In this document: positions 5,977 through 63,871 of the stretch, piece after piece | Layout of the letters: each line of letters begins with the position of its first letter | How positions within the stretch are numbered: position 1 is the stretch's first letter | DNA from: a virus | Strand: one strand, 5' to 3' | DNA: 64,000 nt | Virus record (IMG/VR): IMGVR_UViG_3300045988_080627 | Made by a program: the position numbers and the translations under genes | Notes under the pieces: generated by a model | Told to the model about the DNA's origin: nothing | The model's database searches: none | What the model saw: the letters and a program-made list of their open reading frames with translations, nothing else

Positions 5977-7119
5977 ATAAATATACTCTTTCTCCTTTTG
6001 GAGTAAGAAACCCCTTAGTAAAAGCGTTTATCTTTTCTTTACTACAAGTCTCCCAAGTATTTCTATTTATAGCTTCTTTAAGAGATTTATTATAATAAAT
6101 TATATCTAAGATTGTTTCCCAATATATATCGTTATTATTAGTTTGAAAAGTTAATAATAACTGATATTTCTTAAATAATTCTAAATTTATTTGAGGAGTA
6201 AATTCAAATCTAGGACTATCATATTTATCTTTCCAAGTAACGTCATAACTATGTAACTCAATCCATTTATTAGGAAATCCACAAGGTAGCCCTGATATTA
6301 TAGGTCCAAAATAAATGGAAGGTTTAGGAAATTTAAACCATCTCCTAACCTTCCACCATGTTCTAAGAGGATTCTCCATCAGCACGTTTTAAATAAGGTA
6401 TTAACTCATCTTCTATTATTTTATAAAAAGTCGAGTTAATATCAGTATATACTAGAGTTCCATATAAAGCTTGAATAATTTCTTCTTTATTTAGCTCCCA
6501 CTCTTCCATATAAGATAGAGTGGATTTAATAGACATATCAGAATCAGTGTGTAAGAATTTTATATAATCAAATATATCTTTAATACTTACATCTAATTCA
6601 TCTGTTGTAAGATATTGATATGAAATTTTCATGATTTTAAAGATAATTTAATTATGTATTGTGCTACGTCGTTTATAACTTCTTTTAGACTAGAATCTAA
6701 AGGGTTATTATTTTTATGACCTCGTAGTTTTAAAAATCTATAAGTATAGGCACGAGCTTCCGGCATCCATTTATCAAATACTTCTTTATTAGATAATGTT
6801 GGAGGAAATAAACTTCTAATCCAATTCCAATATTCAGAAGTATCTATCTTTAAAGTTTCTATGAATTTAATTTCCATTCTTTAAAGTAAATTTAAATATT
6901 CCAAAATACTTTCACACAGTAAATCTAATAACTTATCATTGATATACTCATCATATTTTATATCTTGTTTTATAAAGTATCTCTCTAGATAATAATAAAT
7001 ATTATCACTTATATCGTCATACCAACTATCTTTAGGAGCATTTTCCTTCAAGAGTTCATTTTGTATAAACTCTGAAAAATCTTTTACACTAAGATCAAGA
7101 TAAGAAGTATACGGAATCT

Positions 7120-10786: not shown

Positions 10787-11851
10787 CCTTTTATACCCTC
10801 TCTTTCGAGATATTTAATTTATTAATAACATATTCTTTTATTTCAGCTTTACGTTTCTCTGAAATTTTATCAATATAAGAATTATACAGAGCATCATTAG
10901 CTTCATTCCGAAAATTTTTTAATACTAATTTTTCACAAAGATACCTTTGATAAACGGCTTCTTCTTTTAAGTCTCTATTCATTAAATAATAACGTTGTTT
11001 TTGAAAAGTAAAATCAGTTTTCCACCTATTTCGTTTTTTATCAAAAGATACACCTCGAATACCCGAAGTATTATTAGATTTCTTTTGTAGGTTTAACATA
11101 TTTTCTTGGATAGTTACTTCTCTAAGATTACATTTTCTATTATCATGAGTATCTCCACTAATATGATCAACTTGTTTATCAGTAGGAAGTACCAACCTAT
11201 GAAAATAGATACGTTCTTTTTTCTGGTTTCCTGTAAATAAATAAGGTTTATTATTTTTATAAACAGTTCTCCATTTATGACCCTTTAACTTTGGAACATC
11301 ATCTATATCTAGAATAAATGTTTCCATAATATTTCCATGAGAATCGTAAGTATCTATTTCCGCAAAATTATCTTTTAATCTAATTTCATTATCATCAAAT
11401 ACTCCTCTTGAATTAGTATCTTTAAATTCCCCCAAATCTTCTAAATTGTTCTCTATGTTTTTCACATAGTATTTTTCCAGAAAGTTTATTAAAACTAACT
11501 TTTTTAAATTTTGATGATACTCCACATACTTCACAAAAGCGTTCTTCTGTTATTTTTCTCATATTGTTAAATAATTATGTTAATAATAAGGGAGTGGACT
11601 ATACCATCAACCCATAGGTTGCGCATTGGTAGTCTCTGAGACCCATAAATTTTATATATGTTAAGTATATACAAGACTTGTATAAATTCTAACACTTTAA
11701 CATAAATTAACAATTTATATGTCTGCTGATTGCCCAATCCTAAGACTTATTCATCCTTGAAAATATTTCAAGTATACTTAGGCTCTAAGGGGTTTCCAGC
11801 ATATTCTGCGTTTACTACATAATATTACTATTATGTGGGGCGTTTACGTTC
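10787..11851 (-). mobile_element. group I intron in nrdD (phage T4 nrdD/sunY-like architecture; ORF 3' of core)
   Basis: Minus-strand core elements are present: R-like ggtCTCAGAGACTAccaatgcg (about 11626-11640), S-like ggTATAGTCCactcc (about 11596-11603), and P/Q-like gctggaaacc / caatcagcagac. The terminal G at 10787 abuts exon 2. The HNH ORF occupies the 3' portion. Confidence 0.7.
10791..11534 (-). CDS. intron-encoded HNH homing endonuclease (frameshifted relative to N-terminal zinc-finger segment)
   Basis: Contains the HNH motif DHISGDTHDNRKCNLREVT. A 46-aa alternative-frame ORF (11422..11562) encodes CEVCG...GKILCEKHREQFRRFG, which is the N-terminal zinc-binding motif of this HNH family. 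A 1-nt length change in the C5 run at 11429-11433 (plus strand) would fuse the two frames. Confidence 0.6.
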   Translation of the reverse strand: MKYVEYHQNLKKLVLINFLEKYYVKNIENNLEDLGEFKDTNSRGVFDDNEIRLKDNFAEIDTYDSHGNIMETFILDIDDVPKLKGHKWRTVYKNNKPYLFTGNQKKERIYFHRLVLPTDKQVDHISGDTHDNRKCNLREVTIQENMLNLQKKSNNTSGIRGVSFDKKRNRWKTDFTFQKQRYYLMNRDLKEEAVYQRYLCEKLVLKNFRNEANDALYNSYIDKISEKRKAEIKEYVINKLNISKERV

Positions 11852-13970
11852 ACCCAATAATTCTATCCCATAGACTTACATGAGTACTACCACATTTAGG
11901 ACATTTACTAAATGGCTGTTTTGCTATAAAATGGCACTCTTCACATTCACAATTAGGAATATTAAAAGTAGCATATTTACAACCCACTTTAGCCATAAAT
12001 TTAAGTAAATACTCATATTGTTTCTGACTCAAATGTTCAGATAAATTAAGATGGCAAGCAGAACCTCCATCTAATTCATCAGCGGCGAACTCAGAACTAT
12101 GAAGTATAATTTTATCAAGTATACTTATATGTGTATCGTTAGGTTTAAATATATAACTGGCATATAGATTAGTATCTGTAGGAATCCAATAACCATCAGC
12201 TTTATCTCTATTGTAAAGTTTTACTGAAGCGCTTTCTGCAGGAACTTGCTCTGTATTAAATTGAGCTGTTTTAGTTTTATGTTTCTTATTCTGCTCTTTT
12301 ATAGTACTAAATATTAATCTACAAAATGTTTTATAATAAATATTATTATTACATTCCATTCCTAAGTATTCAGCAGCCTGATTTAAGCCATTAATTCCAA
12401 TAGTTAAATACTGCTTATCAAGATTAATAAAACCAGCATCATAAGCAGCATATAAATGATGGTCTTTGCACCAATGCATTAAGTCGTTATAAGCATATTG
12501 ATACAAATAAACTCTTTCAAGAATATTTTCTATATATTTCTTAATTCCTTCTTGGAAATCTTTATGTGTAATCCAATCTACTGGGAAACAACATTTATTT
12601 GTATTAACATCAATATGGTCTCTATAATCAGACCAAGTATGTTGCCAATCTTGAATAATTCTGTTTAAATTAAGAGTGATGACATTCTTACTACCAGTCA
12701 TTACACCTATTTGACCATTAGTAGTATTAAATGTATTTTCTTGTACTGCATTTTGTAAACGACAACATGAACTTAGACTATCTACACTACGAGACAGATA
12801 AGTAAAGAAAGAATTTCCTTGAGCATATTCATTGCATATAAAATGGAAAGTATCTAAATCTTTAAAATTATCTTCCTTATCTGTTAAACAAGCATAACTA
12901 CATACAGGAAATGTTAAAATACATTTTAATCTTTCTTGGTTTAACCAGTGTAAATAACGTCTTTGTAACCAATTAGTAGAATTCCATTCTGGCTTTGTTC
13001 CATCTGGAAATACAAATTCTCCAAACATACCTTCAAAGAAATATTTATCGAAGAATGAAAAATTTGTAAATGGAGACTGCATTCCTCTAGCTCCTGCTAT
13101 TTGATTAATGGAGTAAGTTACCTGTTGAAAATATTGATCAATTTGACTACCAATAGTCTTTTGTTTTATACAGTAATCTGTAGTTATCTTTGCACTTGGT
13201 TTAAGATAATAATTATTTCCCCATTCTTTTCTACAGAAATAATCCATATACATTAGAAACTCAGGAGTAGCTACTGCTCCTTTAATTTCAGAGGCTAATG
13301 CAAAGTTTAGATTTACATAAATACCACAAAATGAATCTAGATTCTTTGGAACGGCTGATTTACCTCCTAATTTTTCTAATCCAGACAACAAGAAAGGATA
13401 CATAGAAGCTGCCATACAATATGGTTCTCCTACTTGAGAAGATGAATCGTGAGGATACAAAATAGTTTTAAAATCATTCCTCATAACTTTTATATTAAAG
13501 TTAGGATCTCTCTTCTTTACAAAACTTTCCCACCATTCTGTATTAGTAAGTTTATTATCGACTTTATGTATTTCAGCATTTAATACTCCAATGCCTTTAG
13601 TTCCTACATTACTATTATCATCAATAGTAGCATTAGCAGTATTATCAGACTTTACAAAATTATGAATAAATTCAATATCCCTAGTAGCATGATTTCTAAT
13701 ATCTTCACGTTCTTTACGATATAGAATATATTTTTTAGCTACGTCGTAATATCCTAAATCCATTAAGAGTTCTTCAATTTGGTCTTGAATATTCTCAATA
13801 GATTGATCTTCAGTTTCTACTACAGAATTAGTTATCTCAGTAACTGCTCTGTAAATATCTTCGTCTATTGTTCTACTAGAATTTTGGGTAATTCCAAAAG
13901 CCTTTAATACAGCATCTCTAATTTTGTTTCTGTTAAACTCTTCTTTACTCCCGTCTCTTTTTATTACCAT
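11852..13970 (-). CDS. nrdD: anaerobic ribonucleoside-triphosphate reductase, exon 1
   Basis: N-terminal ATP-cone MVIKRDGSKEEFNRNKIRDAV and C-terminal zinc ribbon CECEECH...CPKCGS. The ORF stops right after ...WDRIIG, lacking the glycyl-radical Y. The inferred 5' splice site follows the U at 11852. Confidence 0.8.
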
Positions 13971-14070: not shown

Positions 14071-15402
14071 TTAAATTTTTGTTTCATCTAAAAAAGAGAG
14101 TGTATCTATTATTTTAGAATTAGAATAATTATAAGGAATTTCTATCAATTCTAATTTTCCCGGATGTTTACTACATATTTTTCTTAATAAATTATCTCTT
14201 CTAATTTGTTTTTGAAAATCTTCTTGGCTATTATGAAAAAATGGGATAAATTCATAATGTTGTTTTCCATTATATTCTATTATATAAATACAATCATTAT
14301 GTTTCACTATGAAATCTACTATAATTTTATTAGAATTGCGTGCTATTTCTTTAGTCTTTATCTCATATTGAAATTTATATTTACAATGATATTTATTTAA
14401 TAAATTTTTTATAAATAATTCTCCTTTACTAGGCTCTATTTGTTCTCTAGCACATTCAGGGCATTTACACCCCTTTAAATGATTGCCTGGGGATTGCTCA
14501 AATTTACCATGTTTTGGACAAATAATAGTAATTGGAGTTTTATAATTTATATAATTAACTTCGTTGTAATCATATTTCCAACCATGAACTTCTCTAGCTT
14601 TTCTTATAAAATCTTCTTTAGTTAAAGTATAAGATTCTATAGCACAATCTGGACAATATCCATGATGGTATATTAAAGTTGATGCTAGTATGCTAAAATC
14701 TCCATGTTTTGGACAAGTTAAAATTACTGAATTAGTTATTCCAGTATAAACAGTTTTATTTGTAGTATATTCGGGATGAATTTTTTCACATTCTTTAATA
14801 AATTCATCTTGCGTAAATCTGAAAGTATTAGTACATTTAGGACATCCATTTTTACAATTTAAATGCTGGTAAGGTAACTACCAAAATTCTCCATGTTCAG
14901 GGCATATAATACAAACTTTTTCCCTACTACCTTTAAAATCTACTTTTGAATAATCAAATTTATAATTATATTTTTCATTAGCAGCTTTTACAAAATCCTC
15001 TTTGGATCTAATTACTTTAAAATCTTTACTTTTTCCTCGACATTCCTTGCAAGCACATTGTCCTTTTAAATGATTACTAACTGTTTGCCAAAACTCGCCA
15101 TGTTCAGGACATATGATACACACTTTATTATTAGTACCCGTATAAACTACTTTGGAATAATCATATTTATTATTCCAAATTTTATTTGCTTTTCGTATAA
15201 AGGTATCTAAATCAAATTTTTTACCTGAACAAATAGCACAGCCTCGTCCCTATAAATGTGAATTTGCTTCTTGTACAAACACTCCATGAATAGGACATAT
15301 TATCTTAACTTTATCTTTTGATCTAGAAACTTCTACTAGGGAATAATCATACTTATTTCCATGAATTTCTTGAGCTTTTTTAATAAAATATTCTTTATTC
15401 AT
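14071..15402 (-). CDS. zinc-ribbon repeat protein with C-terminal DUF559/Vsr-like endonuclease domain; contains two in-frame TAG codons
   Basis: One 444-codon frame (ATG 15402 to TAA 14071) carries five tandem modules of about 63 aa (KYDYSKV...IICPxHGxFxQxxxxHLxGxxCxxC). The C-terminus VDFIVKHNDCIYIIEYNGKQHYEF...RRDNLLRKICSKHPGKLELIEIPY matches the DUF559/Vsr-like PD-(D/E)xK pattern. In-frame TAG codons at 15250..15252 and 14878..14880 split the ORF track into 14071..14307 and 14878..15123. Confidence 0.55.
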
Positions 15403-17145
15403 CTGTATTATGATTTAGTTAAGATAACTATATATAGATTTGTACAAGAAGCAAATAAATTTTTACAAGTTTAAAATCTTTTTAAGTAATACACATTTTT
15501 CAAATTTATTCATAATATCCTTATTATTATCATTTGAAATACCTTCTGTAAAACTGTTATAAACTTCAAACATTGAAGCTTCCCCATTAATTCCTATATA
15601 ATAATCAGATTTAGAATCTTCAAACATACGTTTATAAGAAGCTATAACTTCAGAAGTAGCTAACTTTATTTTACCAAAACCATTATCTTCAAATTCAGTT
15701 ATAGCTTGTCTTACCCAATATCCTAAACTGATATTTATATTAGATTCTGAAGTGTCAAATTCAGTATTTTTCAAAGTTTTAAGAAAAATTCCTAATGAAT
15801 CAGCAGCTTCTACTAAAGTTTTTACAGGAGAATAATCTACAGGTTTATCAGGAGATAATTCAGAAACCCTTATATAACTAGGATTAAATACACACATATT
15901 TAAACATGCCATATTTAATCCTGTTCTAAAAAACTTTATTATAGGTTTTCTAGTATCTAATCCATATAACATATTTATAGTTTCTTTATGATTATCTACT
16001 GAATACTCATTTGGTAATACTGCTTCTAACCATACTCTATTAAAAGTTAAATCAGCAGTATCTATATCACCATTTTTATTATAAGTGATTTGATCAGGTA
16101 ATTTTACATGTACTCTAATATCAGAAGTTAATTTTTGAACTCTCTCTAAGAAAGGTTCAATATATCCTCTAGTAGGAAGATAATCTTTACCTTTAATACT
16201 AGTAGCTTTTCCTTCTAATACTTCTTCTAAAGTAAATTCAGTTGGCATTCTCTCCATTGTATGTGAAAAACATTATGTTATCAATAATTTCTTTATCTAA
16301 TAATTTTTGTACTAAATTATGAGGAGTATCTTCCGCATAATTAATTTTATTTACATCTACACTAGTAATATATATCCACTTACTCCCGTTGTATAATATT
16401 TGTCCACAGGGATATGAATTTTTATAGCAGATAAGTAGTGTTTTGTTATCTTTAGTAATTTCATTAGTTACCATTTTAATGTAGCAATAAATTCTTCATC
16501 AGACATTTCTTCGAAATCTCCTTCTCCGTAAATAACATCAGAAATATTATATTCTACTATTTTAAATTCAGGTTTTCCATGTTCATGCCAATAGTCTTCT
16601 ACAACCTTAGCACAGGAATTAGGACTTCCAACACCTAAAGCTATAGTCACATCAAATTGATTAACTTCTAGACAATGACCTTTATAAAAGTCTCTACACT
16701 TTTTAATATGTGTAAGACATAAATCAGTTGCTTCTTTACCTATAATTGTTTCTAAAGATGGAACCTTTTTATAATCTCTATAACCTGGTTTATCTTTAGT
16801 CGATGGTTTGTAATCATCTTCTATTCCTCCTTCAACTAGGTAATTAATAAGAACATCAAAAGTATCATCCCAATCATCTACAATACCATAAGCAGTTTTA
16901 AAAGAATCTCTTATATAAATAAAATTATCTTGTGAAAGATAATGTCTTTTATAAAGAGGGTTTTCTTTAGAGTCTTTAAAACCACTTTCTATAAGTTCAT
17001 CTATATTTATTGATGGTTGTGCCCATCTATACATTTCCACTAAACATTTATGTATGGCTTCTTGTAAAATGTCTTGTCTACTAATCATTATTGTAAGTAT
17101 AAAATTCTAATAATCTAAAATTATCTGCTATATGTTTAGTATCTA

Positions 17146-36085: not shown

Positions 36086-36933
36086 AATATATAAAATTTT
36101 TAAAATGTATACAAACGAAAAAAGTCGAGCTTATTGCCCGACCAAACATCAGTAAGTACCCCTTTGGTACTTACAAAGTAACTAATAAGATTAAATAATT
36201 GGAGGCATGTATAATCTAGAATATTGAGTAACATACCAAATCCAACCCTTCTTAAATGCTTTTAAAGTTCTTTTTAAAATTTTCATCATAATAAATCAAA
36301 TTTAAAGTTTAACTTATAAAATATCTAGGAGGAGAGTTTTAAAAAATTAAGAACCCCAGGGAAATCTCCCTGTTAAAGACAATCTTATGGTCTTTATTTT
36401 TATTATTTAGGATTCTGTAGGAATGCAAAAAACATCGAACCATTCCAGTTCGTAGGTTCTACGACACCTAATAGGCGAGTGTGCATCGTTGAGAGGCACC
36501 CTATAAGTTACGTTGCTCCTGTAGCTAGCGTTCTAGAGCTTTGTTATAGTGTGGGATGTGCGCCTTTAGCTACACTAATCCTGCATTATTTATAAGATAT
36601 CTTTCCAACGCATGAAGAATAAGAAATTTTTTTATTATTATCTTCTAATATATAATAATAATCCTCAAATGTTTCTTGAATACCTTTAAAAACATATTCT
36701 TTATCCATCCACATAACAGGTTTTTCCTACATTAAGTAGTTCTTCTTTTACCCATTTTGGAGCATCCTTAGGAACATCATCTACAGAATAATAATTTCCT
36801 ATTACTTCATACATTAATTTATTTATTAATTGTTGGAAAGTCTGCATTAAAATAGGAACATCTTCAGTTTATACTTTAATGTTTCTAAATTGTCTGTATC
36901 AATAGTTATTTTCATAAATATTTAATTTAATAG

Positions 36934-43305: not shown

Positions 43306-44616
43306 CAGTATTGTTATCATATAGCTTTTTATCTATATTTCTATAACTTCTTATTTGTTATAGCTCAGCGTACCTTTTTCTCCATTCAAATAATTGGGAG
43401 AGCGGGCGCTCTTGGAAGTATTATATTCTCTTATAAGAGTTTCAACTTCTACGCGTTACAGTGATGAAGATTCGTTACTATCTTCATTTACCACGGGATT
43501 AACATCACAGCCTTCCCCGTTTTCACTCGCTAATAATTCTAAACATTCCTGTTTAGAACGGCAAGTTTTAAAAATTTTATATCTTTTATATTTTCTGTCT
43601 AAATAAATGGAACTATTACTATATACTAAGTCTAAAAAATCTAAAGAATTTGTTAAAGATATATTTAATACTAGAGTATTTTCCATTCTTGGATCTTTTA
43701 CTAAAGAACTTTTTATATTAAAATTACTTAATATTGATTGTATCTTTACTAAAAATTGCTTAGTTCCTAGAAATGAAACTTTTGGTAAAATTTTAGTTCT
43801 CTAATAGTAACTTAGGCATCCATCACCATCAAAGTATCCTCTAATAAAAGGAATTTCTAATTCTTCAGAAATATTAGGAAATTGAAGAGTTAAACTTTTT
43901 CTTGGAGTACATCCTAAATTATTTAGAGTATTCCATAAGTGCTTATTAACTATTCCCCAGCGACACCTTAAAAAAGTTTTATCTTTATTCTTAACTTCCC
44001 CTAATTTGACATTATCTTTATTATGCTCCATAAACTTATTAAATTTATGTAAGTGTTCAATATCAGAGCCTTTTAAAGATAGTTCAAAACCATTATCTCT
44101 TGATGAAATATAACCATCAGCAAATATAAATCCTAACCAATAAGCTTTCTCCTCTGTATCTATAGCATCGAAGATATGCTCATTAAATTTAGTTTCATTT
44201 TGATGATTGATTATTTCAATCCCTTTAGCTTTTAATTTTCTAGACAAAGTTTGGATAGAAGTATGATACTCTTTAGCTAATTTAGATAAACTTATCCCTT
44301 GCTCATATTTAGGAATAATATCTTTATCTAGATCAAATAATAATTTGTTTTGCTTATTAACTACTTCAATCCCATTTCTTTTTAGAAATGAACTTATAGT
44401 AGAAGTAGAAATTCCAACTTCTTTACCAATCTTAGTACAGCTTAATCCATCTATTAAGTACAAAGTCTTAATTTTTTCTCCTAATTCTTCATTAATTACA
44501 AATTTCATATTCATATAGTTAAAATTAATATTACTATAATACATATGAAATTTTATTAAATCCAAATAAATATAAAATTTTTAAAAATTTAAGCTTACTG
44601 AAATTGCTTAAATTTT
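43306..44616 (-). mobile_element. intervening sequence (putative group I intron) in AAA ATPase P-loop carrying a LAGLIDADG endonuclease
   Basis: 1311 nt lie between GTG and KT of Walker A. The element ends in G at 43306 and the upstream exon ends in U. It contains ORF 43801..44565 and shares a roughly 32-nt 3' motif with the helicase intervening sequence. Core R/S elements were not found by eye. Confidence 0.45.
43801..44565 (-). CDS. LAGLIDADG homing endonuclease (two-motif) with N-terminal HTH repeats
   Basis: YWLGFIFADGYIS and FIRGYFDGDGCLS are two LAGLIDADG motifs. Repeated HTH-like segments (LSKLAKEYHTSIQTLSRKLKAKGIE) precede them. Confidence 0.7.
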   Translation of the reverse strand: MDLIKFHMYYSNINFNYMNMKFVINEELGEKIKTLYLIDGLSCTKIGKEVGISTSTISSFLKRNGIEVVNKQNKLLFDLDKDIIPKYEQGISLSKLAKEYHTSIQTLSRKLKAKGIEIINHQNETKFNEHIFDAIDTEEKAYWLGFIFADGYISSRDNGFELSLKGSDIEHLHKFNKFMEHNKDNVKLGEVKNKDKTFLRCRWGIVNKHLWNTLNNLGCTPRKSLTLQFPNISEELEIPFIRGYFDGDGCLSYY

Positions 44617-51413: not shown

Positions 51414-51479
51414 GAAATGTGGACAGATTCGAACTGCCAACCTCTGGTGACCTACCTACTAAACTTGAGCTACACATTT
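51414..51479 (-). tRNA. short (66-nt) tRNA-like gene/pseudogene
   Basis: Acceptor aaatgtg/cacattt pairs and the T arm ggcagTTCGAATctgtc is present. The D and anticodon region is too short for a cloverleaf. Confidence 0.25.
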
Positions 51480-51689: not shown

Positions 51690-51796
51690 CTTAAATAAAG
51701 GGATTCGAACCCTTAATCCTCAAGAAATATTTAATGACGACTTCAGAGACGCATTCCGTCAATCTGCTGCTGTATACCAATTCCGCCATATTTAAG
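51690..51796 (-). tRNA. over-long (107-nt) tRNA-like gene
   Basis: Acceptor cttaaat/atttaag pairs perfectly and the T arm aagggTTCGAATccctt is present. About 30 extra nt lie between the D and T arms (insert or intron-like). Anticodon not assignable by hand. Confidence 0.3.
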
Positions 51797-53106: not shown

Positions 53107-53112
53107 TAATTG

Positions 53113-53184
53113 TTGGACTACTCAGATTCGAACTGAGGCTAACAGAACCAAAATCTGTTGTGCTACCGTTACACTATAATCCAA
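53113..53184 (-). tRNA. tRNA-Gln(UUG)
   Basis: U1-A72 acceptor tggatta/tagtcca, D arm gtg-taacggtag-cac, anticodon stem acaga/tctgt, loop ttTTGgt, T arm ctcagTTCGAATctgag. Confidence 0.7.
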
Positions 53185-53364
53185 TAATGACTTAGTAAAG
53201 ACCCAAAGTTTCCTTATTTAATCCTGACTAACTTAGTAAAGCAATTGGGTTTGTCTTTACCTTTAAAATCCAGTTTCTAAGTCTGAAATACTTAGTAAGC
53301 GCAAATACTAAGTTATAGTCGGCGCTACTTTTACGCATTTTGTGACACTAAGTATTATAATTTG

Positions 53365-53436
53365 TTGAACTACCCAGATTCGAACTGGGATTGAGAGTTC
53401 TAAAAACTCTAATAACTACCATTACTCCATAGTCCA
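53365..53436 (-). tRNA. Gln-like tRNA with anticodon UUA (ochre-suppressor type); weak D stem
   Basis: U1-A72 acceptor tggacta/tagttca with one G-U pair. Perfect anticodon stem agagt/actct with loop ttTTAga. T arm cccagTTCGAATctggg. The D stem (gag/tta) pairs poorly. Confidence 0.5.
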
Positions 53437-53534: not shown

Positions 53535-53645
53535 AATAGAGCTTCCTATCTTCACAGACAAGAAGCCTTTCCAACTCTTTAACGTTTTTACATAATCCGC
53601 TGATTATGCACAATTTAAAACCATTTAATTTGTTTACGTATGGCG

Positions 53646-53720
53646 CAGCACTAACAAGATTCGAACTTGTTTTTCCATCTTTTAAATAAGTGGCGTCTTA
53701 ACCAGGTAGACGATAGTACT
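53646..53720 (-). tRNA. tRNA-like gene with enlarged (11-nt) anticodon loop
   Basis: Acceptor agtacta/tagtgct and T arm acaagTTCGAATcttgt are good. The anticodon arm is ccac-ttatttaaaag-atgg; the anticodon cannot be assigned. Confidence 0.3.
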
Positions 53721-53952: not shown

Positions 53953-54353
53953 ATATCCCATATTTCTATAAAGGAGAATAGTGGTAACACCTACCTATAC
54001 TAATAGGTTTATTAGTTAGGATTTATCCAAACACACTAACAACATGGTTAAATTCAAATAAAATGATAGGGTCTTCTCAAATCATAGCTGGTGATTGTAG
54101 AAATTCTACATAAATGAGTATTTTAAACGAAACTATTATTTAGTTAGCTACTCTATCTAATAGTTGAAGGATTTTACCTTCATCTCTATCATAATTGTAC
54201 TAATCTGGCGGCTTATTTAAAATAAGTGTCCATATTTTATGCATATTATTTTGGACTAGATTCCTCTTTATTCATTTCTCACAGCTGATAGAATAAAATA
54301 TAAAATAAGGATATCCCATACTTCCTCTTCAGGAGAGTGATTAATACAATTTG

Positions 54354-54435
54354 TACGGTAGAGAGGATTCGAACCAATGACCTTCTCGAAATGACCTATT
54401 ATAAAGAGATGCTCTAACCACTGAGCTACTACCGT
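54354..54435 (-). tRNA. tRNA-like gene (82 nt) with internal 8-nt direct duplication and weak T stem
   Basis: Acceptor acggtag/ctaccgt and D arm gctc-agtggtta-gagc are good. aggtcatt is duplicated before the T loop, and the T stem attgg/cctct pairs 3 of 5. Confidence 0.3.
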
Positions 54436-54866: not shown

Positions 54867-54948
54867 TACGGAGTAGAGGATTCGAACCAATATAACCCCT
54901 AATGATATTATGTTGCTATGGGTGCTCTAACCATTAAGCTAACTCCGC
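54867..54948 (-). tRNA. tRNA-like gene (82 nt), same weak T arm (attggTTCGAATcctct) as previous
   Basis: Acceptor gcggagt/actccgt and D arm gctt-aatggtta-gagc. The anticodon region cccat...attaggg is non-canonical. Confidence 0.3.
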
Positions 54949-55040: not shown

Positions 55041-58000
55041 AAGTGCAACTAATTGTCTGCTAGTTGCCAACAATATATATGAACTTTACAGAATTACTCT
55101 ACTATTTCAGTTTCAGATATATACCATTTACCATTAATTTTAACGGCTTCTATCTGTTTATTGTTTACTGTCTCAAGGAATATTACATCTTCCAAAGTTC
55201 TGTTGAGAGAAATAATATATTTATTAGCCTCTTCTTTAGAATTAACTATACGAGACTGAATGCTATTGTTAATAACACTATATATCTTTCTTAAAACTTT
55301 CATAATTATAGTTTTTATAAAGTTAATAATAAATAGAGCATTGTTTCACAACAACACTCTACTATAGTTTCAAACATTTATTGTAAAAAGTAAAAATTTG
55401 TTAATTTCAAATTTTATAGTTTAAATCATCATATTTTACAAATTTTAAACTTTAATACAATACAAAGACAATTTTATAGTATGTCTGCAATATCTACATA
55501 ATCATCTTCTGGATCTGGACAATCTTCAATATCACATGTTGTATCATTCTCATTATATTTTGAATGATAAGCAATGTAATTTAACTTATTAATAATATTG
55601 TTTACTTTAGCTAATCTATTATAAGTAGAATCTAAAGCCTGATTCAAAGCATTTGCAACAACTTTACACATAGTGTGCATAGCTTTATCTCTTACAATTC
55701 GATTAGCTACTACTTGGTCGTCCTTATCATTTTTACTTAAAGTAATTTTAGCAACGACTATAATAGTAGAATTATCAATAGTAAGTCCCCAAGAAGTTAA
55801 GTTTTTAATGAAAATCTTTCTCTCTTTAGAACTTGCAATTCTAAGAAATACAGAAGTATCTGCACTTGAAACTTCCACATTAGCTCCTTCTAAATAGTCC
55901 ATTATGTACTCTAAATCACAAGACATAGTACAAAATGTATTGTTACCAACTCTCTCAATGTTGTATTTTACTTTCTTAATTGTCTGCATTTTCTTTCGTT
56001 TTAAATTCTTTGAACAATTTAATGATACCTTTTAAAGCATATTCTGGAACATCGCCACAAAGACATCCACCATTTACATACAGCTTAACATTACCATATG
56101 TAAATTTAGTAATCTCAAGATTTCCTTCAGCACCATTAGATTCATTCTCTAACCATATTGGAAAATCTTTCCATTCATCTACAGTTAATGATTCATCAAT
56201 AACTGAATGTTCTTCAATAGTTGGTTTTAAAGCTTTAAAATGCTTTAATACTAGAGCTTTATGTTTCTCATCTGCAAACTCTAGCTTCTTTGGTTTCTTA
56301 CTAAGGAAGAAATAATCTTCTTTAATCTTAGCTACAACATTTTTTTGTTTGATATTAAATAATAATTCCATAATTTTAAAATTAATAGTTATATTTATTT
56401 AGTTCAAGATTAACTTCAGAAATTAATCTAGATTTATATGTAGCTAATGCTGTTTTATAAGTTTCAGAATCAGCTTCATAATGATCTTCGATATATTCTA
56501 AAGTTCCTTCTTTGAATATTACAGTTTTAGATGATAATTTATCTAATAGAAATATTATTCCATTAGATGTTAAAGATTTACCTACAGTAAATCCTTTACT
56601 ATACATATTAATATGTATATACAAACAATCATAGAGACTTAAAGCATTGTTTATATTACTTTTTATGTCTCTTAGTTGGTCGAGTTTTACTTGTTTTACT
56701 ATTCTATTATGACCAGTAATAGTCCAAATCACGCATAGAATAAAACAAAGTATAATAATTATTAATAAACTTTTATCCATATATTCTTGGTTCTGTATTA
56801 ATATTTTTAGAACTAATATATTGATAAAGCCATTTAACATTATTTACAATAAAAATATTACCTTTTATATCTGTAAATAATATTTTCTTGTACTTATCCA
56901 TAATTAGCCCTGATAACACTAGTAAAGGGTTTCTAATATATACTGCAAACGTTCCTCCTTTCATGCTTTCTCCAGAAATAGTTCTTAATTTATTATTAAG
57001 ATATTGATATTTCTTGTTAAAAGCATTAGCATAGTTAGAATGCATAGTTTTAGAAACATGATATTTTGCATCAATCTGTGCTGATAGCATTATTACTAAT
57101 TCTCCCAGTGTATTATGATTCATTGTTACCATTGATAGATTCCTCCTAAAGATAATTGTGCTTGTAATGTTTCTAAGTCACTTTTAATTGGAAGTTCTTT
57201 ACCGTAGGTAGTTTTATACTCTCGGCAAACTTGTGCAATAGTTTTCTTTTTAGAAAAGACTAATGCTGTAATCTTAATAATGTCTTTTGTTTCCATTTTT
57301 TAAACTATTTAATTATTAATAATGTGCCATCACCTTTCTCATTTAAGAGTCTGCTACTTTGGATATGCAGGATGTAGGTTTACACTTAGAGTCCTATTTT
57401 CACAAACCGAACTCTAATTCTTGTCTTTGTAATCTATAGTGCCTATGGACATAATAGATTACTAAAGTAACTAGCCCTATCTATCACAGACCGAACTAGC
57501 AAAAATGATCTAAACTGTATATTGTTGATAACTATTCTATTTTAAAAATACATAAGTCTTGTCTTATGATTAACCAATTTACTTTCCAAGATGTCAACTA
57601 TTTATTTATACTCTATAGTACTAGAGTGCAGCATCATTCTTTTACTTAATACACTTCACTTTTTAAAGATTCATATCCTTCATATAATGGGAACTCTGAA
57701 TTAAGAGTAATCTTAATAAATACTTTATCATCAATAGTTACAAGTCCTACAGCTTTAATATTACGATTACTATTATTATAACTAGTACAAATAACTGTAT
57801 TAGGAGTAACATCTGTCACCCCTTTAAAACCCATATTATCAAGAATTTTACATATAGGTGTTAAGTAATAAATTTTACCTTCTTTGATAACACAAGAAGA
57901 AAATGGAATTACTTTATCACCTATATGATAAGTTTTAGCGTCATGGTCTATTGTGAGAGCCTTACCTGCAAGACTCTCACAACCTGATATAATTTTTTTA

Positions 58001-61000
58001 TTTAAAATCTCTGTATTCATCGATTACATCAATTAAATCCTGGAATGTATATTTTCCAATATCTGATTTATCTTCAACCCAGTAAAGAGCTTTAGCAATC
58101 TGTTTAAGTTCAAACTTAGTCAATTCGCCCAACTTGTACTGCTGGACTTTTTTAACTAGTCCTCGCATAGTCTCATAAGCATTAAAAGAGAATGTATGTT
58201 CTCCTCCAGATTTTCTAGTATATATAATGTATTTATCATCACAATACTTTATACTATCTGAATGCTTAACAAGATTACTAGCACAAGCTTTTATTCTATC
58301 TTCTAAAGCTTCTACTATAACATTAGTATAAGCCTCAAACACTTTCTCAGCAAACTCTTTGAAATCTCTTTTTGATGGAGTTTCAGAGAATGCTACTTTC
58401 TTAAAAGGAATAGATACAGAAATTGTATATTCCTTTTCATTCTGCATTATATTTATCATGAATTATAGTTTTTAAAATCTTTATACGTTACTTTACCCAT
58501 TATTATAATTAGAGCAATGAAAATAATATTTTGTAAGAGTATCATAGCTTATAATTATTTTGTTGGTATTCTGCTACTAATAACTTAGCATTATCTGCTA
58601 GTGCTATAATATTAGATTTTAATAATCTTTTATAAGCACACAAGATAATGTCATAACAAGTTTGTGTAGAATCATATGGTTCTTCTTTACAATCTTCCCA
58701 CTGTGCAATGGTTAGAGTATTAAGACCGTAGATTCCTCCAATATAAACCTCATCTATTGTCATGGAATTTATATCGTCAGTTCTAAACATTCCATATCTA
58801 TCTGGACCAAGATTAGCATTACGAAAACCTTTACGCCAAATACGTTTATGGAGTATCATACACTCAGCCAGAGTATTGGCATTACCAATTTTAGTAAGCC
58901 AACACTCATAACTATTAACAAGACCTTGTTGAAGCTTGTAGTCTGCAACATTCTTGTTTAATTCCCTTTTATTGAAAATTCTATTCCAAATGTTGTATTT
59001 TTTCATTTTATTTAAATCATTAAATTATTTGCAAGTTTAAATATCGCAGTATCAATAGAGATATAGTTCATTTTACGCTGAGTAAATTTCTCATTAATTA
59101 TAAGATTCATCAACTTAGCTAATTCTACTGAATATGGAATATTAGTAGCTTTTACTAAGAGTTGAACTGCATAATTATGAGATTTACGATTGGCTATAGC
59201 CATATTATGTGTTTTAATGACTAATCTACGCCAATATAGATGTTCCTTAGTTTTTATCTCTCGCAGATACAACTGATGTACCTGCAAGAGACTTGATTTA
59301 CCTGTTAACATATATGGAATTATTAGTTTGATTGCGTAAGTCAGAATTTTCTGATTGAAGAGTAGCTATTGTAAATAACAATGCTACAACTACTATCCCT
59401 AAAAGAATAGTAGAGATTACAAAGATATTCTTTTCCATTCTGTAAAGTGTATAATTGGGATAGAGCTGATAACCTACTACCTTAATTAGTATTTTATTGC
59501 ATAATACTACTAGTTGCCACATCGGGTGGTACTGCAACCATATTTATTTACAACTCTATCCCTTATTGTTATTTAAATTGTTAACTAATAAAAGTAAGCA
59601 GCCCTCTAGCTATTAAGCTGAAGGGATACACTTGCTTAGGTTTTACTTACACTTTACTACATATTGAGCAGGAAGTGATACATCTACTGCTACATCACCA
59701 ATAGTTGTATAACCGACTTATCTGTCATTAAAGCACGAAGAGCAGGTTCTTTATCATTCAAAATTTCCGAAGCATTAAATCTTATTACTTCTAATGATAC
59801 TGCTGGAATCAAAGTGTCAATAATGAAATTCAAAGTAGTATTTTTTACGAATACCCTCTGATAAGAAAAACTTAATGAGAGTTTTTATCTGTTCAAGTTC
59901 ATAGTTAAGTGTCTCAAAATTATCAGTAGGCTTCATAAATAATGAGGCACTTTACTACCTGATCATGTACTACTTGTTCATATATTATGGAATCTTTAGC
60001 CTTGTCAGCAATATCCGCATAAGTGTTAAATACACCCTCTAACCACAGCCCAAACTCACTAATAAGTTCAGGAGTACCTGTAAATGTACAATACTTACTG
60101 TCAAACTCTGCCAAATCAATTGGCTGTTTTGTTGTTGTATCAATAATTTGGAATATCATAATTTACTTTATTAAAGAGTTATTATTTTAGTTAATTAAGT
60201 AGTTTATACACTTGCTTAGGTGTTTGATATTTATCTATGAATATCAGCACCTCTAGAAGCTTCAAATACCTCCCAATTAAAATCAGACTCTATATGTTGT
60301 AGAGTAGTATTATATGGTTCTAGGTATTTATAGAACATGATAGTACCAGTACTTGTTATAGGTTGTCTATATAACCTATAAGTACGGTCTTGATGTTTTG
60401 TTGCTTCTCTTCGTCCCCACTCAATTAATTGATGAGGATTGAGTCCTATCTTACACATTGTCATGTCATCACCAACAATTGTGTACACTACAATATAAAA
60501 ATACTGCATAACTTTATACGATTTACCTTAAATACTATCGCGAGGTTTTTAAATGAATATTAAGCACTTTAGTTTTAAGACCTATAAACCACGTTGAGGT
60601 ATGCTTTATGATATAAGATTTCGTCTAAAGTAAACTTTAGACAGGGATTTCAACCTTTGGGTAAAAACCTTTTGTTTTTGTTTGTGTTTGTTATTTTTAG
60701 TGAAACATCTTACAAAGAATAAAAATATTATTGTGTAATATCTTTATAAATTGTTTGATGTGATAGGATGATTTGGATGTAATATATGAATTGGTTTTAG
60801 TGAGAGAGATTGGGAAATTGAGGAAAGGTTTGGTTGGTGGATGGGGGGTTCGTGTGCACACAAACTCATACCAATCCATACAAACAACTCACCTTCCTTA
60901 TCCATTCCCAACTTATCCCCCACCAACTCCAACTATCTCTCCAAACAGCATACTTGACCACGATAACTTTGTTATCCTCAATCAACAACATAAAAATTCC

Positions 61001-61163: not shown

Positions 61164-61685
61164 TTAGCTTAAGCGGATATTAGAGAAACGCTTAGCGTTT
61201 CCATAATTTGCCAAAGTTTCAATATCCACAGTAATAGTGGATACGTCTTTATTTTCAAGATAAGACGCGCAAGCCTTTAAGTCATTACAACCCGGGCACG
61301 CTTGTGCCAAAATACGAGTCACATTTACAACTCGCTTTCCATCAAGTCCGTCGATGGTGATATCTGACGCTGACAATACAGTCACCGTTTGAGCTGGCTG
61401 ACCAGTCATCATGTTGGCTGGTATAGTACGTTCCTCTGCATTAAACTGAACATTGTCACCGAGTGACAATACGATGTTAGCACTCTTGTTGAGAACTGCC
61501 TCAATCTGAGAGGCAGACATTGCACTGTGGTTAACAGTGCCGTTTTTACCGACTGAAATTTTCATAACTTTTTGTTTTTTAAAATTGTTAATAATTTTTG
61601 TTTTGGTTTTTACTCCAAATATGTGGGGGGCTCTAAGGGGCAGTCTACTCCCTCTCACATAATAAAAATTAATTTTTAAAATCAA
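61164..61685 (-). CDS. hypothetical protein, GC3-rich (likely highly expressed); probable true start MKISVGKNG
   Basis: Codon usage differs from neighbouring genes. Followed by a strong terminator. Confidence 0.3.
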   Translation of the reverse strand: MILKINFYYVRGSRLPLRAPHIFGVKTKTKIINNFKKQKVMKISVGKNGTVNHSAMSASQIEAVLNKSANIVLSLGDNVQFNAEERTIPANMMTGQPAQTVTVLSASDITIDGLDGKRVVNVTRILAQACPGCNDLKACASYLENKDVSTITVDIETLANYGNAKRFSNIRLS

Positions 61686-62390
61686 ACACTATTCTTACTT
61701 TCTTACAAAAATCCTTATTTTTTTTAAACCCCAGGGGGCTATATAAAATCTTCCATAAAAAATTTTAAAATTTTAATTTAAAAATCTTAGAATATTAACT
61801 TTTACAAAAATTAACTTTTAATATTCCTTACCTCAACTATATTACTCGTGTAATCAAAAAATAAATATTAAATGAATAAAGAACAACTAATACAAAGTAT
61901 TAAAGACCTTCCTGATTAGTATAATATAAATTTATAGGTTATTGATAATGTAATTCATATAACCATGACTAAAAAGGTAGATGAATTTGAAGAATATTGT
62001 AGTAAATTAGATGATGAAACATTTAATAATGCTTGTCTAATATTTGGAATTATTTCAGATATATCTTTAGAAGATTTTTCTTCTAATTTATATAAACCTG
62101 AATATAAAAAATATAAACAAGAATTTAAACGTATAGTAGAATTTTTAAATGATAGAAACATTACGAAAAATTAATAATATAGTTCCTAATCTTACAATAT
62201 CGCAATTATTAGAAATTATAAATATTATTAATGAACCTAATTTAATTATAGATAATATAGGAAAAGAAGTACCTTATAATGGACGTATGACAATAGATGC
62301 CGATGATATTAGAAGTAATATTACTAATATAGGTACTTATCGATAAAGATATTATTCTCCTATGGTGTAATGGTTAGCACAGAAGACTCT

Positions 62391-63393
62391 TAAAAATTTT
62401 AAAGTATGGAAAATAAAATTTATAAACTTACGGATAAAGAGTTTTCAGACTTAGTTAAGTCAAGTCTGAATATCTCAGAAGTTTTATTTAAACTTGGATA
62501 TACTACTGTTGGAAACAGTTGGGGATATTCACAAGTTAAACAAAGAATGCAAGATTTAAATTTATCAGGTAAAGATTTTAGAGGCAAATCAGCTATAGCC
62601 GACTGTAATGAAAAGAAAGAAATAGATGCTTCTAAATTATTATGTGAAAATTCAAAACACGCACGTAATATATTAAGAAGTTATATATTAAGAAATAAAT
62701 TACTTCCTTATACATGTGCAATATGTGGAATTACAGAATGGCAGGGTAAAACTTTATCTCTAGAATTAGACCATATTAATGGTATAAATAATGATAATAG
62801 AATAGAAAATCTAAGATTTTTATGTCCTAATTGTCATAGTCAAACCACTACTTATGGTGCTAAAAATAAGCAAAAAGTAGAATCTAAATACGAGCTTTCT
62901 GATGAATTAAAGAATTTAATTATTAGTTCTTATATAGAATTAAAAAATCAAAAGAAAGTTGCTGATAAATATAATTTAAATCATAAAGCAGTAAAACAAG
63001 TTTTATCAGAAGCTGGATTAACTAAACAAAATCAAAAGTATGTTATACAATATGATTCTTCTCATAATGAAATAAGAAGATTTGGATGTATAGCGGAATG
63101 TTGTCAATGGTTAATGGATAATAATTTAGTAACTACTAAATTAATGAAAACTTGTAGAGCAACTCTAAATAGAAATATTGGTATTCTTTGGAAAAATTAT
63201 TACTTTGAAATATTGGATGCTTAAAGGATAATCCATAATCTTTAAGTAGAATCTCTTTTAATCGACTTGGAAGCGTATATACTTAGTATAAAGTGACAGG
63301 GCGCAAGTTTAAATACAGCGTGAACGACTAAATAAAGAGACTGGTCTTAGGACTGGATGTGATAGTCTAATCCTCTACAGAGGTGTTAAAATG
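62391..63393 (+). mobile_element. group I intron in tRNA anticodon loop, encoding an HNH endonuclease
   Basis: 3' core after the ORF: R-like gaacGACTAaa, P8-like hairpin, S-like gtgaTAGTCtaatcc, P9 hairpin cctct-acag-agagg, terminal ttaaaatG. A possible internal guide aaagagt (62436) is complementary to the exon end gactct. Confidence 0.55.
62406..63224 (+). CDS. intron-encoded HNH homing endonuclease
   Basis: CAICGITEWQGKTLSLELDHINGINNDNRIENLRFLCPNCHSQT is an HNH motif with flanking zinc-binding cysteines. Confidence 0.7.
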   Translation: MENKIYKLTDKEFSDLVKSSLNISEVLFKLGYTTVGNSWGYSQVKQRMQDLNLSGKDFRGKSAIADCNEKKEIDASKLLCENSKHARNILRSYILRNKLLPYTCAICGITEWQGKTLSLELDHINGINNDNRIENLRFLCPNCHSQTTTYGAKNKQKVESKYELSDELKNLIISSYIELKNQKKVADKYNLNHKAVKQVLSEAGLTKQNQKYVIQYDSSHNEIRRFGCIAECCQWLMDNNLVTTKLMKTCRATLNRNIGILWKNYYFEILDA

Positions 63394-63431
63394 AAATCTT
63401 TTAGTCAGGGTTCGAATCCTTGTGGGAGAAC

Positions 63432-63713
63432 ATGATAGCAGCAATTTATGAATTAAATGGTAAGATTTTAAAAACAACTAATCTTACTAAAAAATTAAAA
63501 CGATTAAAATCAGAACCTAAGATTCTATTTCAATTAGAAAATGGAACAGAAGCTGATTTAGACAAATGGATTAAAGACAACCAAAATATAAATTCTAATT
63601 CAGAAGAAGATGTTGAAATTAAAAAATATCATTATAGAAATCCAATTACAGGATATACAATAACTTCTATATATGATAATCTAGATGTTAATGGTTATAT
63701 AAAAATTGATTAA
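63432..63713 (+). CDS. hypothetical protein
   Basis: ORF MIAAIYELNGK... starts right after the tRNA 3' exon. The track gives an alternative TTG start at 63420 that overlaps the tRNA. Confidence 0.4.
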   Translation: MIAAIYELNGKILKTTNLTKKLKRLKSEPKILFQLENGTEADLDKWIKDNQNINSNSEEDVEIKKYHYRNPITGYTITSIYDNLDVNGYIKID

Positions 63714-63871
63714 TGACTAACAAAGAATTAAAAGACTTAAAGTCTAAAATGAACAAAGTACTTAATGAAGTACAGTAGATTATTGATACTATAGGAGATA
63801 ATGATTTACAAGATAATCAATTAACTCTTGATTTTTGTGATAAGTTAAATGAATTATCTGTTACTTATTAA
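63713..63871 (+). CDS. small hypothetical ORF with an in-frame TAG (63776..63778)
   Basis: MTNKELKDLKSKMNKVLNEVQ-TAG-IIDTIGDNDLQDNQLTLDFCDKLNELSVTY-TAA. The ATG overlaps the upstream stop (TAATGA). Confidence 0.3.

Follow-up and report, generated by a model that had tools for sequence, protein, structure and literature searches.

How does a phage gene come to be maintained when its reading frame is broken by two TAG codons? The question is raised by a zinc-ribbon endonuclease gene on the minus strand, at positions 14071..15402, of a 64,000-nucleotide (nt) stretch of the IMG/VR virus record IMGVR_UViG_3300045988_080627 (hereafter the window), which covers the replication and nucleotide-metabolism module of an uncultured human-gut tailed phage with about 29% G+C. 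In this study, we report that both TAG codons are very probably read as glutamine (Gln) under the code of the late genes, as the phage is a member of a gut lineage in which TAG has become a sense codon (genetic code 15). As judged by Pfam, the window encodes NrdD, a DNA ligase, PIF1-like, DnaB-like and SNF2-like helicases, and a flotillin-like protein. Its closest public genome is MT835492.1, a 121.6-kb sequence from human faeces (Mexico) that was deposited unannotated and is about 93% identical to the window over positions 1-45.7 kb.

The zinc-ribbon endonuclease gene and its two TAG codons

The gene comprises 444 codons, including the terminal TAA, and would yield a product of 443 amino acids (aa). 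A sequence-only reading of the window had described it as a single frame interrupted by just two TAG codons, and translation confirms that codon 51 (TAG-1, 15250..15252, minus strand) and codon 175 (TAG-2, 14878..14880, minus strand) are its sole internal stops. The same reading placed both codons at positions that the paralogous repeats fill with Gln. This holds for TAG-2, which aligns with Gln in three of the other four modules (HGVFVQ, HGEFWQ, and HGKFEQ, all encoded by CAA, versus HGEFW-TAG), but not for TAG-1, which aligns with K or N in the paralogues. TAG-1 lies in the context NSHL-x-G, and Gln at this position is found only in the orthologues of other phages, within the conserved motif NSHLQGRGC. 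With Gln inserted, the local contexts become ANSHL-Q-GR at TAG-1 and GEFW-Q-LPYQ at TAG-2, and the peptides predicted by translation table 15 across the two sites are ANSHLQGR and ...GEFWQLPYQHLNCK. The argument that two TAG codons are not what random decay would leave also stands up to calculation, since 43 of the 258 single-step nonsense routes open to the codons of this gene lead to TAG, which gives two TAGs out of two a probability of ~0.03. By arithmetic from the base composition, a random frame of 444 codons would be free of TAA and TGA with a probability of ~2e-14. Under the standard bacterial code (code 11), two stretches of the frame, 14878-15123 and 14071-14307, are called as open reading frames (ORFs).

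Eight near-identical alleles, assembled independently from different samples, were compared, namely the window, the IMG/VR locus L005, and the loci L117-L122 from Logan and ENA. Codon 175 is TAG in 8/8 alleles, whereas codon 51 is TAG in six and CAG in two (L121 and L122); no in-frame TAA, TGA, or frameshift was found in any of the eight. The window and L005 differ at 33 nucleotides across the gene. Downstream of TAG-1, these differences amount to 25.5 synonymous and 5.5 non-synonymous changes, a ratio of non-synonymous to synonymous polymorphism (pN/pS) of 0.05 (binomial p ~1e-13), and between the two TAGs (codons 52-174) there are 12 synonymous and no non-synonymous changes. Change is likewise synonymous-only in codons 54-92, a segment without an internal start codon, so that re-initiation fails to explain the pattern. 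In orthologues that are 56-60% identical, the TAG-1 position is occupied by Gln (CAA), and the TAG-2 position by T or C in closer orthologues and by Q in more distant ones. A large protein database lists the protein at its full 443 aa, in a cluster of 382 members and with Q at each site, whereas its source DNA has TAG at both. The sequence-only reading had allowed for homologues truncated or pseudogenised at these sites; their alignment reveals neither at either TAG, and the frame is under purifying selection. Judged from these substitution patterns, the frame is maintained by selection past both TAG codons.

The product contains five zinc-ribbon modules (Pfam DUF723, 63.7 bits; DUF4379) followed by a C-terminal domain with a match to Pfam DUF2726 below the cut-off, and it falls in PHROG 559, 681, and 7140, all of which are annotated as endonuclease. 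All Cys/His zinc ligands and nuclease motifs are intact, and residues D363, E376, Q381, and H382 are conserved. An AlphaFold2 model of the 443-aa protein (predicted local distance difference test score, pLDDT, 86) gave weak Foldseek matches to PD-(D/E)xK nucleases, including Bax1, the R2 restriction-like endonuclease, Hjc, and AF1548 (best E=1.4e-3); searches of PDB sequences with the protein and with a 16-sequence profile found no relative. On the basis of the model, we tentatively assign the C-terminal nuclease to a PD-(D/E)xK-like class.

Compared with MT835492.1, the gene and its 60-bp upstream region form an insertion (14072..15461) between nrdD (11850-13970; Pfam NRDD and ATP-cone) and a gene for a 264-aa protein. 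MT835492.1 has about 4 bp in its place (window position 14071 corresponds to position 6501 and 15462 to position 6506 of locus L001), while the same intergenic locus is occupied in L005 and L117-L122. When the gene was searched by megablast against 50,697 phage records, its flanks alone matched, to MT835492.1; a more distant blastn search recovered short zinc-ribbon similarities in Klebsiella and Yersinia phages. Since it is missing from the closest genome at this exact site, the gene behaves as a free-standing, homing-endonuclease-like insertion, for which cleavage and gene conversion are putative activities.

TAG usage in the early and structural modules

The early ORFs of the window comprise about 14,900 codons, in which Gln is encoded by 273 CAA and 120 CAG codons and TAG does not occur. 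The 95 minus-strand genes end in TAA (62), TGA (27), or TAG (6), two of the last six lying inside endonuclease genes. An ordinary gene ending at 6363 had been cited by the sequence-only reading as a case of terminal TAG, and that ORF end is indeed TAG; for the four genuine TAG terminators of the window, readthrough would add 0-19 residues. In-frame TAGs in the window are confined to endonuclease genes, two in 14071..15402 and one in a LAGLIDADG-type gene, and in a 52-codon ORF near a tRNA gene.

A different picture emerges from the structural module, which was analysed in relatives. Coverage by stop-to-stop ORFs of at least 100 codons was calculated per 10-kb bin of MT835492.1. Under code 11, coverage is 0.5-1.2 per bin in the first 60 kb, and at 60-120 kb it is 0.11-0.37, as compared with 0.99-1.22 when TAG is treated as a sense codon; treating TGA as sense brought no gain in this genome. 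In the loci L011-L019, coverage is 0.20-0.37 under code 11 and 0.71-0.89 with TAG as sense. The gain in coding density expected from a TAG-sense code is therefore present, and it is found in the structural module of the relatives. With TAA and TGA as stops, ORFs tile MT835492.1 from 63.7 to 121.6 kb on one strand, and one of them encodes the major head protein. Reading TAA as a second sense codon was considered and rejected: it gives larger ORF totals, which are an artefact of AT-rich DNA, and the late ORFs tile with TAA and TGA as stops.

Each late ORF of MT835492.1 contains between 1 and 128 TAGs; the exceptions are two short ORFs at the beginning of the module, which contain none. Altogether, the late genes have 598 TAG, 342 CAA, and 69 CAG codons, so that TAG makes up 59% of the Gln-type codons. 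A comparison of ten close genomes from the clade gave 75 in-frame TAGs with a different codon in another strain, 48 of them replaced by CAG, 12 by CAA, and 15 by other codons; Gln codons thus account for 60 of the 75 replacements, while TGG and TAA, the other two transition neighbours of TAG, account for one each. Several alignment columns of the major head protein switch between TAG and Q within the clade. By codon usage, ORF coverage, and these replacements, the lineage uses genetic code 15, with TAG as Gln in its late genes.

The sequence-only reading had guessed at unit-specific recoding rather than full reassignment, and this is how the genome divides: the standard code suffices for the replication module, whereas recoding affects the structural module. 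TAG serves as a rare terminator in the early core genes and as a frequent Gln codon in the structural module, and the core early genes may avoid TAG because they are translated under the standard code of the host. The endonuclease would follow the late code. Its translation would stop after 50 residues until TAG is decoded, and, as its TAG codons need an active suppressor tRNA, the full-length 443-aa protein would be made only once decoding has begun and hence late.

In the 80 related loci that share the major head protein (L011-L090), most late regions are open under the standard code, and the clade of the window together with about seven other loci need TAG as a sense codon. The mixture of recoded and standard-code loci in one phage family suggests gain or loss of recoding over a short phylogenetic distance. 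Among the 50,697 phage records, MT835492.1 and MT835470.1, both unannotated, are the only matches to the major head protein (phrog_11589); the family differs from the published recoded groups and has so far been unannotated.

The LAGLIDADG-type endonuclease gene (43456..44565, minus strand) presents another case within the early module. Its in-frame TAG (43801-43803), which is spanned by the Pfam LAGLIDADG_3 match, falls in the second LAGLIDADG domain and is conserved in MT835492.1. The pN/pS ratio is 0.045 before this TAG and 0.52 after it (Fisher p=0.003), and the gene may be truncated or decaying.

The suppressor tRNA(CUA) and competing explanations

A CUA suppressor tRNA had been claimed for the window by the sequence-only reading. 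The gene is present, but it is not contiguous, being split by a 1003-nt insertion. ARAGORN and Rfam reported 13-17 tRNA genes in the window, none with a CUA anticodon, and likewise none in MT835492.1 or in 116 fetched loci. Intact 73-nt tRNA(CUA) genes occur in the loci L123, L126, and L127, on the opposite strand and near the counterpart of window gene 61164-61685. In the window, exon 1 (62356..62390, plus strand) is 100% identical to nt 1-35 of the intact tRNA and ends after anticodon position U35, and exon 2 (63394..63431, plus strand) starts at A36 and matches the intact tRNA at 37/38 nt. The joined exons give a canonical cloverleaf with the anticodon CUA, in which U1 pairs with A72 and the D arm resembles the one in the phage tRNA-Gln. 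The intervening sequence (62391..63393, plus strand) thus lies between U35 and A36 of the anticodon, follows a U and ends in G, with the junctions CTCT/TAAAA...AAAATG/AAATC (slashes mark the exon boundaries), and it contains an ORF for a 272-aa HNH endonuclease (62406..63224, plus strand; Pfam HNH E=1.4e-5) that has no TAG.

Among 14 IMG/VR contigs with exon 1, the tRNA is uninterrupted in nine, has an ORF-less insertion of 219-223 nt at the same site in two, and has the 1003-nt form in three. The 219-nt insertion gave a weak match to the Rfam group I intron model (Intron_gpI, RF00028): it scored 17 bits (E=0.05), whereas the gathering score is 50. Automatic alignment of the two insertion types was uninformative, and structural elements were assigned by hand in both forms: P7 (GACUA/UAGUC), P3 (CUUUA/UAAAG in the window form and CCCUA/UAGGG in the short form), then P8/P9 hairpins and a terminal G. 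From these features, the 1003-nt insertion is probably a group I intron, with self-splicing as a putative property. One contig, 105372 (L011, L134), has an interrupted tRNA(CUA) and yet TAG-rich late genes, and the persistence of such genes in strains with an interrupted tRNA makes removal of the insertion from the RNA likely. The phage-encoded Gln-like tRNA(CUA) at 62356-63431 would then be the decoder, provided that the 1003-nt insertion first leaves the anticodon.

In relatives, the TAG-rich ORFs begin 0.6-6 kb beyond tRNA(CUA). About 280 nt downstream of the suppressor tRNA, the window has a putative coding ORF of 52 codons (63713..63871, plus strand) with an in-frame TAG at 63776-63778. 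This third in-frame TAG had been pointed out from the sequence; it is there, and 11 related loci share both this TAG and the ORF around it. It is about as likely as not that the amber-suppressor tRNA is interrupted by a group I intron that is mobile and occurs in forms with and without a TAG-free HNH ORF, and that the code switch depends on its splicing. If true, this would add a gate or delay at the RNA level to recoding, and it would account for those TAG-recoded phages in which tRNA finders miss a suppressor.

ARAGORN lists two "tRNA-Stop" genes in the window, and their anticodons are UUA, not CUA. One of them (53364..53436, minus strand) is a tRNA-Gln(UUG) with the substitution G36A, present only in the window strain: its orthologues in L095, L096, L098, and L115 read TTTTTGGA, versus TTTTTAGA in the window, and exact-pattern scans of IMG/VR for the Gln-derived UUA variant gave no match, which points to a strain-specific change. 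A second, normal tRNA-Gln lies beside it at 53112-53183. The other UUA tRNA (53645..53720, minus strand; also called by ARAGORN, Rfam 39 bits) is the orthologue of a tRNA-Glu(UUC), with an altered anticodon arm that is 2 nt longer, and is 87% identical over 71 nt to the tRNA-Glu of L092.

Classical ochre suppressors read both UAA and UAG, and the two UUA tRNAs, one of them clearly a converted tRNA-Gln, could decode UAG by U-G wobble instead of or beside the CUA tRNA, which is interrupted in the window strain; suppression would then be partial and leaky. The same TTG(Gln)-to-TTA route to a suppressor has been described by Yutin et al. 2021 (PMC7886860). The intact CUA tRNAs of relatives speak against the UUA tRNAs as the decoders. 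The Gln-derived UUA tRNA is unique to one strain and has a weakened D stem (Rfam 39 bits), other strains have the TAG-bearing gene and a TAG-rich late module without it, TAA as the main terminator (62/95 minus-strand genes) would be read through as well, and the family-wide decoder is the CUA tRNA, all of which makes decoding by UUA tRNAs unlikely. Less likely still is a decaying pseudogene, that is, a homing endonuclease gene with two nonsense mutations that is not translated past codon 50. Homing endonuclease genes do commonly degenerate after fixation, the LAGLIDADG gene of the same window is relaxed after its TAG, and standard tRNA finders give no CUA tRNA; such decay is hard to reconcile with the low pN/pS after TAG-1, the exclusively synonymous change between the TAGs, eight alleles free of TAA, TGA, and frameshifts, the CAG/TAG alternation at codon 51, intact zinc ligands and nuclease motifs, and a lineage that reads TAG as Gln, and we consider it very improbable. 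In a metagenomic window with code-11 ORFs in parts of the frame, one might also suspect an artefact of assembly or sequencing, or else three ORFs that are translated separately. Either is scarcely credible, given the same TAGs in independent IMG/VR, ENA, and Logan assemblies and, as regards separate ORFs, synonymous-only change in codons 54-92, where no internal start exists.

Several points weigh against decoding of the endonuclease TAGs as Gln by tRNA(CUA). Genome-wide recoding is seen in relatives that are 93-96% identical, while the window is without structural genes. The relaxed constraint after the TAG of the LAGLIDADG gene implies that some early-module TAGs may not be read through. CAG at codon 51 in two alleles suggests that TAG is tolerated or neutral at this position and not required, so that a role as a "timer" would be without visible selection. 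An Rfam search of the 1003-nt insertion gave no match, either with the whole stretch or with its 3' 186 nt. Finally, the tRNA(CUA) of the window is interrupted, and if it were not spliced, decoding would rest on the UUA tRNAs or on an unseen factor.

Neighbouring elements and relation to known systems

Other mobile elements are found in the window and its relatives. MT835492.1 has a GIY-YIG endonuclease gene with five in-frame TAGs (12551-13201; L002) between tRNA-Met and tRNA-Tyr, which is absent from the window. An HNH_3 endonuclease gene without TAG (10791-11534, minus strand) adjoins nrdD, and window positions 10874-11572 are without a counterpart in MT835492.1; by this comparison, the gene is another mobile insertion. 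Both HNH genes of the window (10791-11534 and 62406-63224) are thus TAG-free. In relatives (L001 4136-5193; L118 3424-5332), nrdD contains an in-frame insertion of about 1057 bp, which makes an ORF of 1062 to 1095 codons with a weak Intein_splicing match; the window nrdD is without this insertion, and an intein in the relatives is therefore probable. Multi-TAG "ORFs" near tRNA genes (window 36339-36731 and MT835492.1 13777-14121) were set aside, as they look non-coding.

Further tRNA-like genes on the minus strand of the window have abnormal anticodon arms (54353-54435, 54867-54948, 51414-51479, and 51690-51795; compared in loci L091-L116). Some have 11-21 extra nucleotides, and one has a run of 3 to 5 T residues, depending on the strain. 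At one orthologous position, the tRNA has anticodon loops of 6 or 8 nt in relatives (CGTAGA, CGTTGA, CTAGGTAA, CACTAA, and CATTAA) and is decayed in the window. These genes could have short introns, or be decoys for anticodon nucleases or products of decay. Two intergenic regions are conserved as well. The first (57538-57629), about 90 nt long and 94-99% identical across distant relatives, has a TTGACA and no notable fold, and is probably a conserved promoter or operator. The second (59438-59601) is 93-96% identical in distant relatives with diverged flanks; its minus strand is predicted to fold at -31.6 kcal/mol (z=-2.6) into a structure closed by a long helix (GGGAUAGAG/CUCUAUCCC), and it may be a conserved non-coding RNA.

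Ivanova, in 2014, is said to be among those who described code 15 (TAG to Gln) in human-gut phages. Late-gene TAG-to-Gln recoding in gut phages with suppressor tRNAs has been reported by Yutin 2021 (PMC7886860), Borges 2021/2022 (10.1101/2021.08.26.457843), and Peters 2022 (PMC9523058), and for phAss-1 (PMC10607447). The lineage studied here resembles the described code-15 gut phages in its low G+C, in a TAG that is equivalent to Gln, abounds in the structural module and does not occur in the core early genes, in a phage-encoded tRNA(CUA), and in the presence of recoded and standard-code members within one family. It differs from them in belonging to a different, unannotated family and in the insertion that splits the suppressor tRNA of the window strain. 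Recoded stops in selfish endonucleases also have precedents: in the Agate phage, an early gene harbours a group I intron whose endonuclease has an in-frame TGA (Borges et al., 10.1101/2021.08.26.457843), and Zeta crAss-like phages have intron ORFs with recoded TGA (Yutin et al., PMC7886860). As in those ORFs, the recoded stop sits in a selfish endonuclease within an otherwise stop-free early region, and the full-length product would be expected after the switch. Unlike them, the window gene uses TAG and not TGA, is free-standing and intergenic, and combines DUF723 zinc ribbons with a putative PD-(D/E)xK nuclease, and its CAG/TAG polymorphism suggests that TAG is tolerated and not required. Both TAG-to-Gln late recoding and recoded stops in intron or homing endonuclease ORFs are thus already published.

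Of the by-products of the analysis, the suppressor tRNA that is split by a probable intron is the most novel. Group I introns are found in the anticodon loops of bacterial tRNAs, such as cyanobacterial tRNA-Leu(UAA) and tRNA-fMet, tRNA-Ile of Azoarcus, and tRNA-Arg of Agrobacterium. For Lak megaphages, "enigmatic" tRNA introns have been described (Devoto et al., PMC6784885). The insertion in tRNA(CUA) is like these tRNA introns in lying in the anticodon loop, with a 5' exon that ends in U and an insertion that ends in G, and in the existence of an ORF-less form of about 220 nt and of intron-less alleles. It is unlike them in that the host gene is the amber suppressor behind a code change, that one form carries an HNH ORF, and that its covariance-model support is weak. 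A limited search of the recoding literature found no description of an intron-split suppressor tRNA.

For annotation, these results mean that the window and its relatives need translation table 15 for part of the genome; without it, gene calling breaks up the endonuclease gene and all of the lineage's structural module into fragments. The endonuclease TAGs fit the published idea that recoded stops postpone the production of endonucleases, to which the CAG/TAG polymorphism adds neutrality rather than requirement. The family offers a natural example in which selfish endonuclease genes residing in a standard-code early module tolerate the Gln codon of the late code, whereas the core early genes do not.

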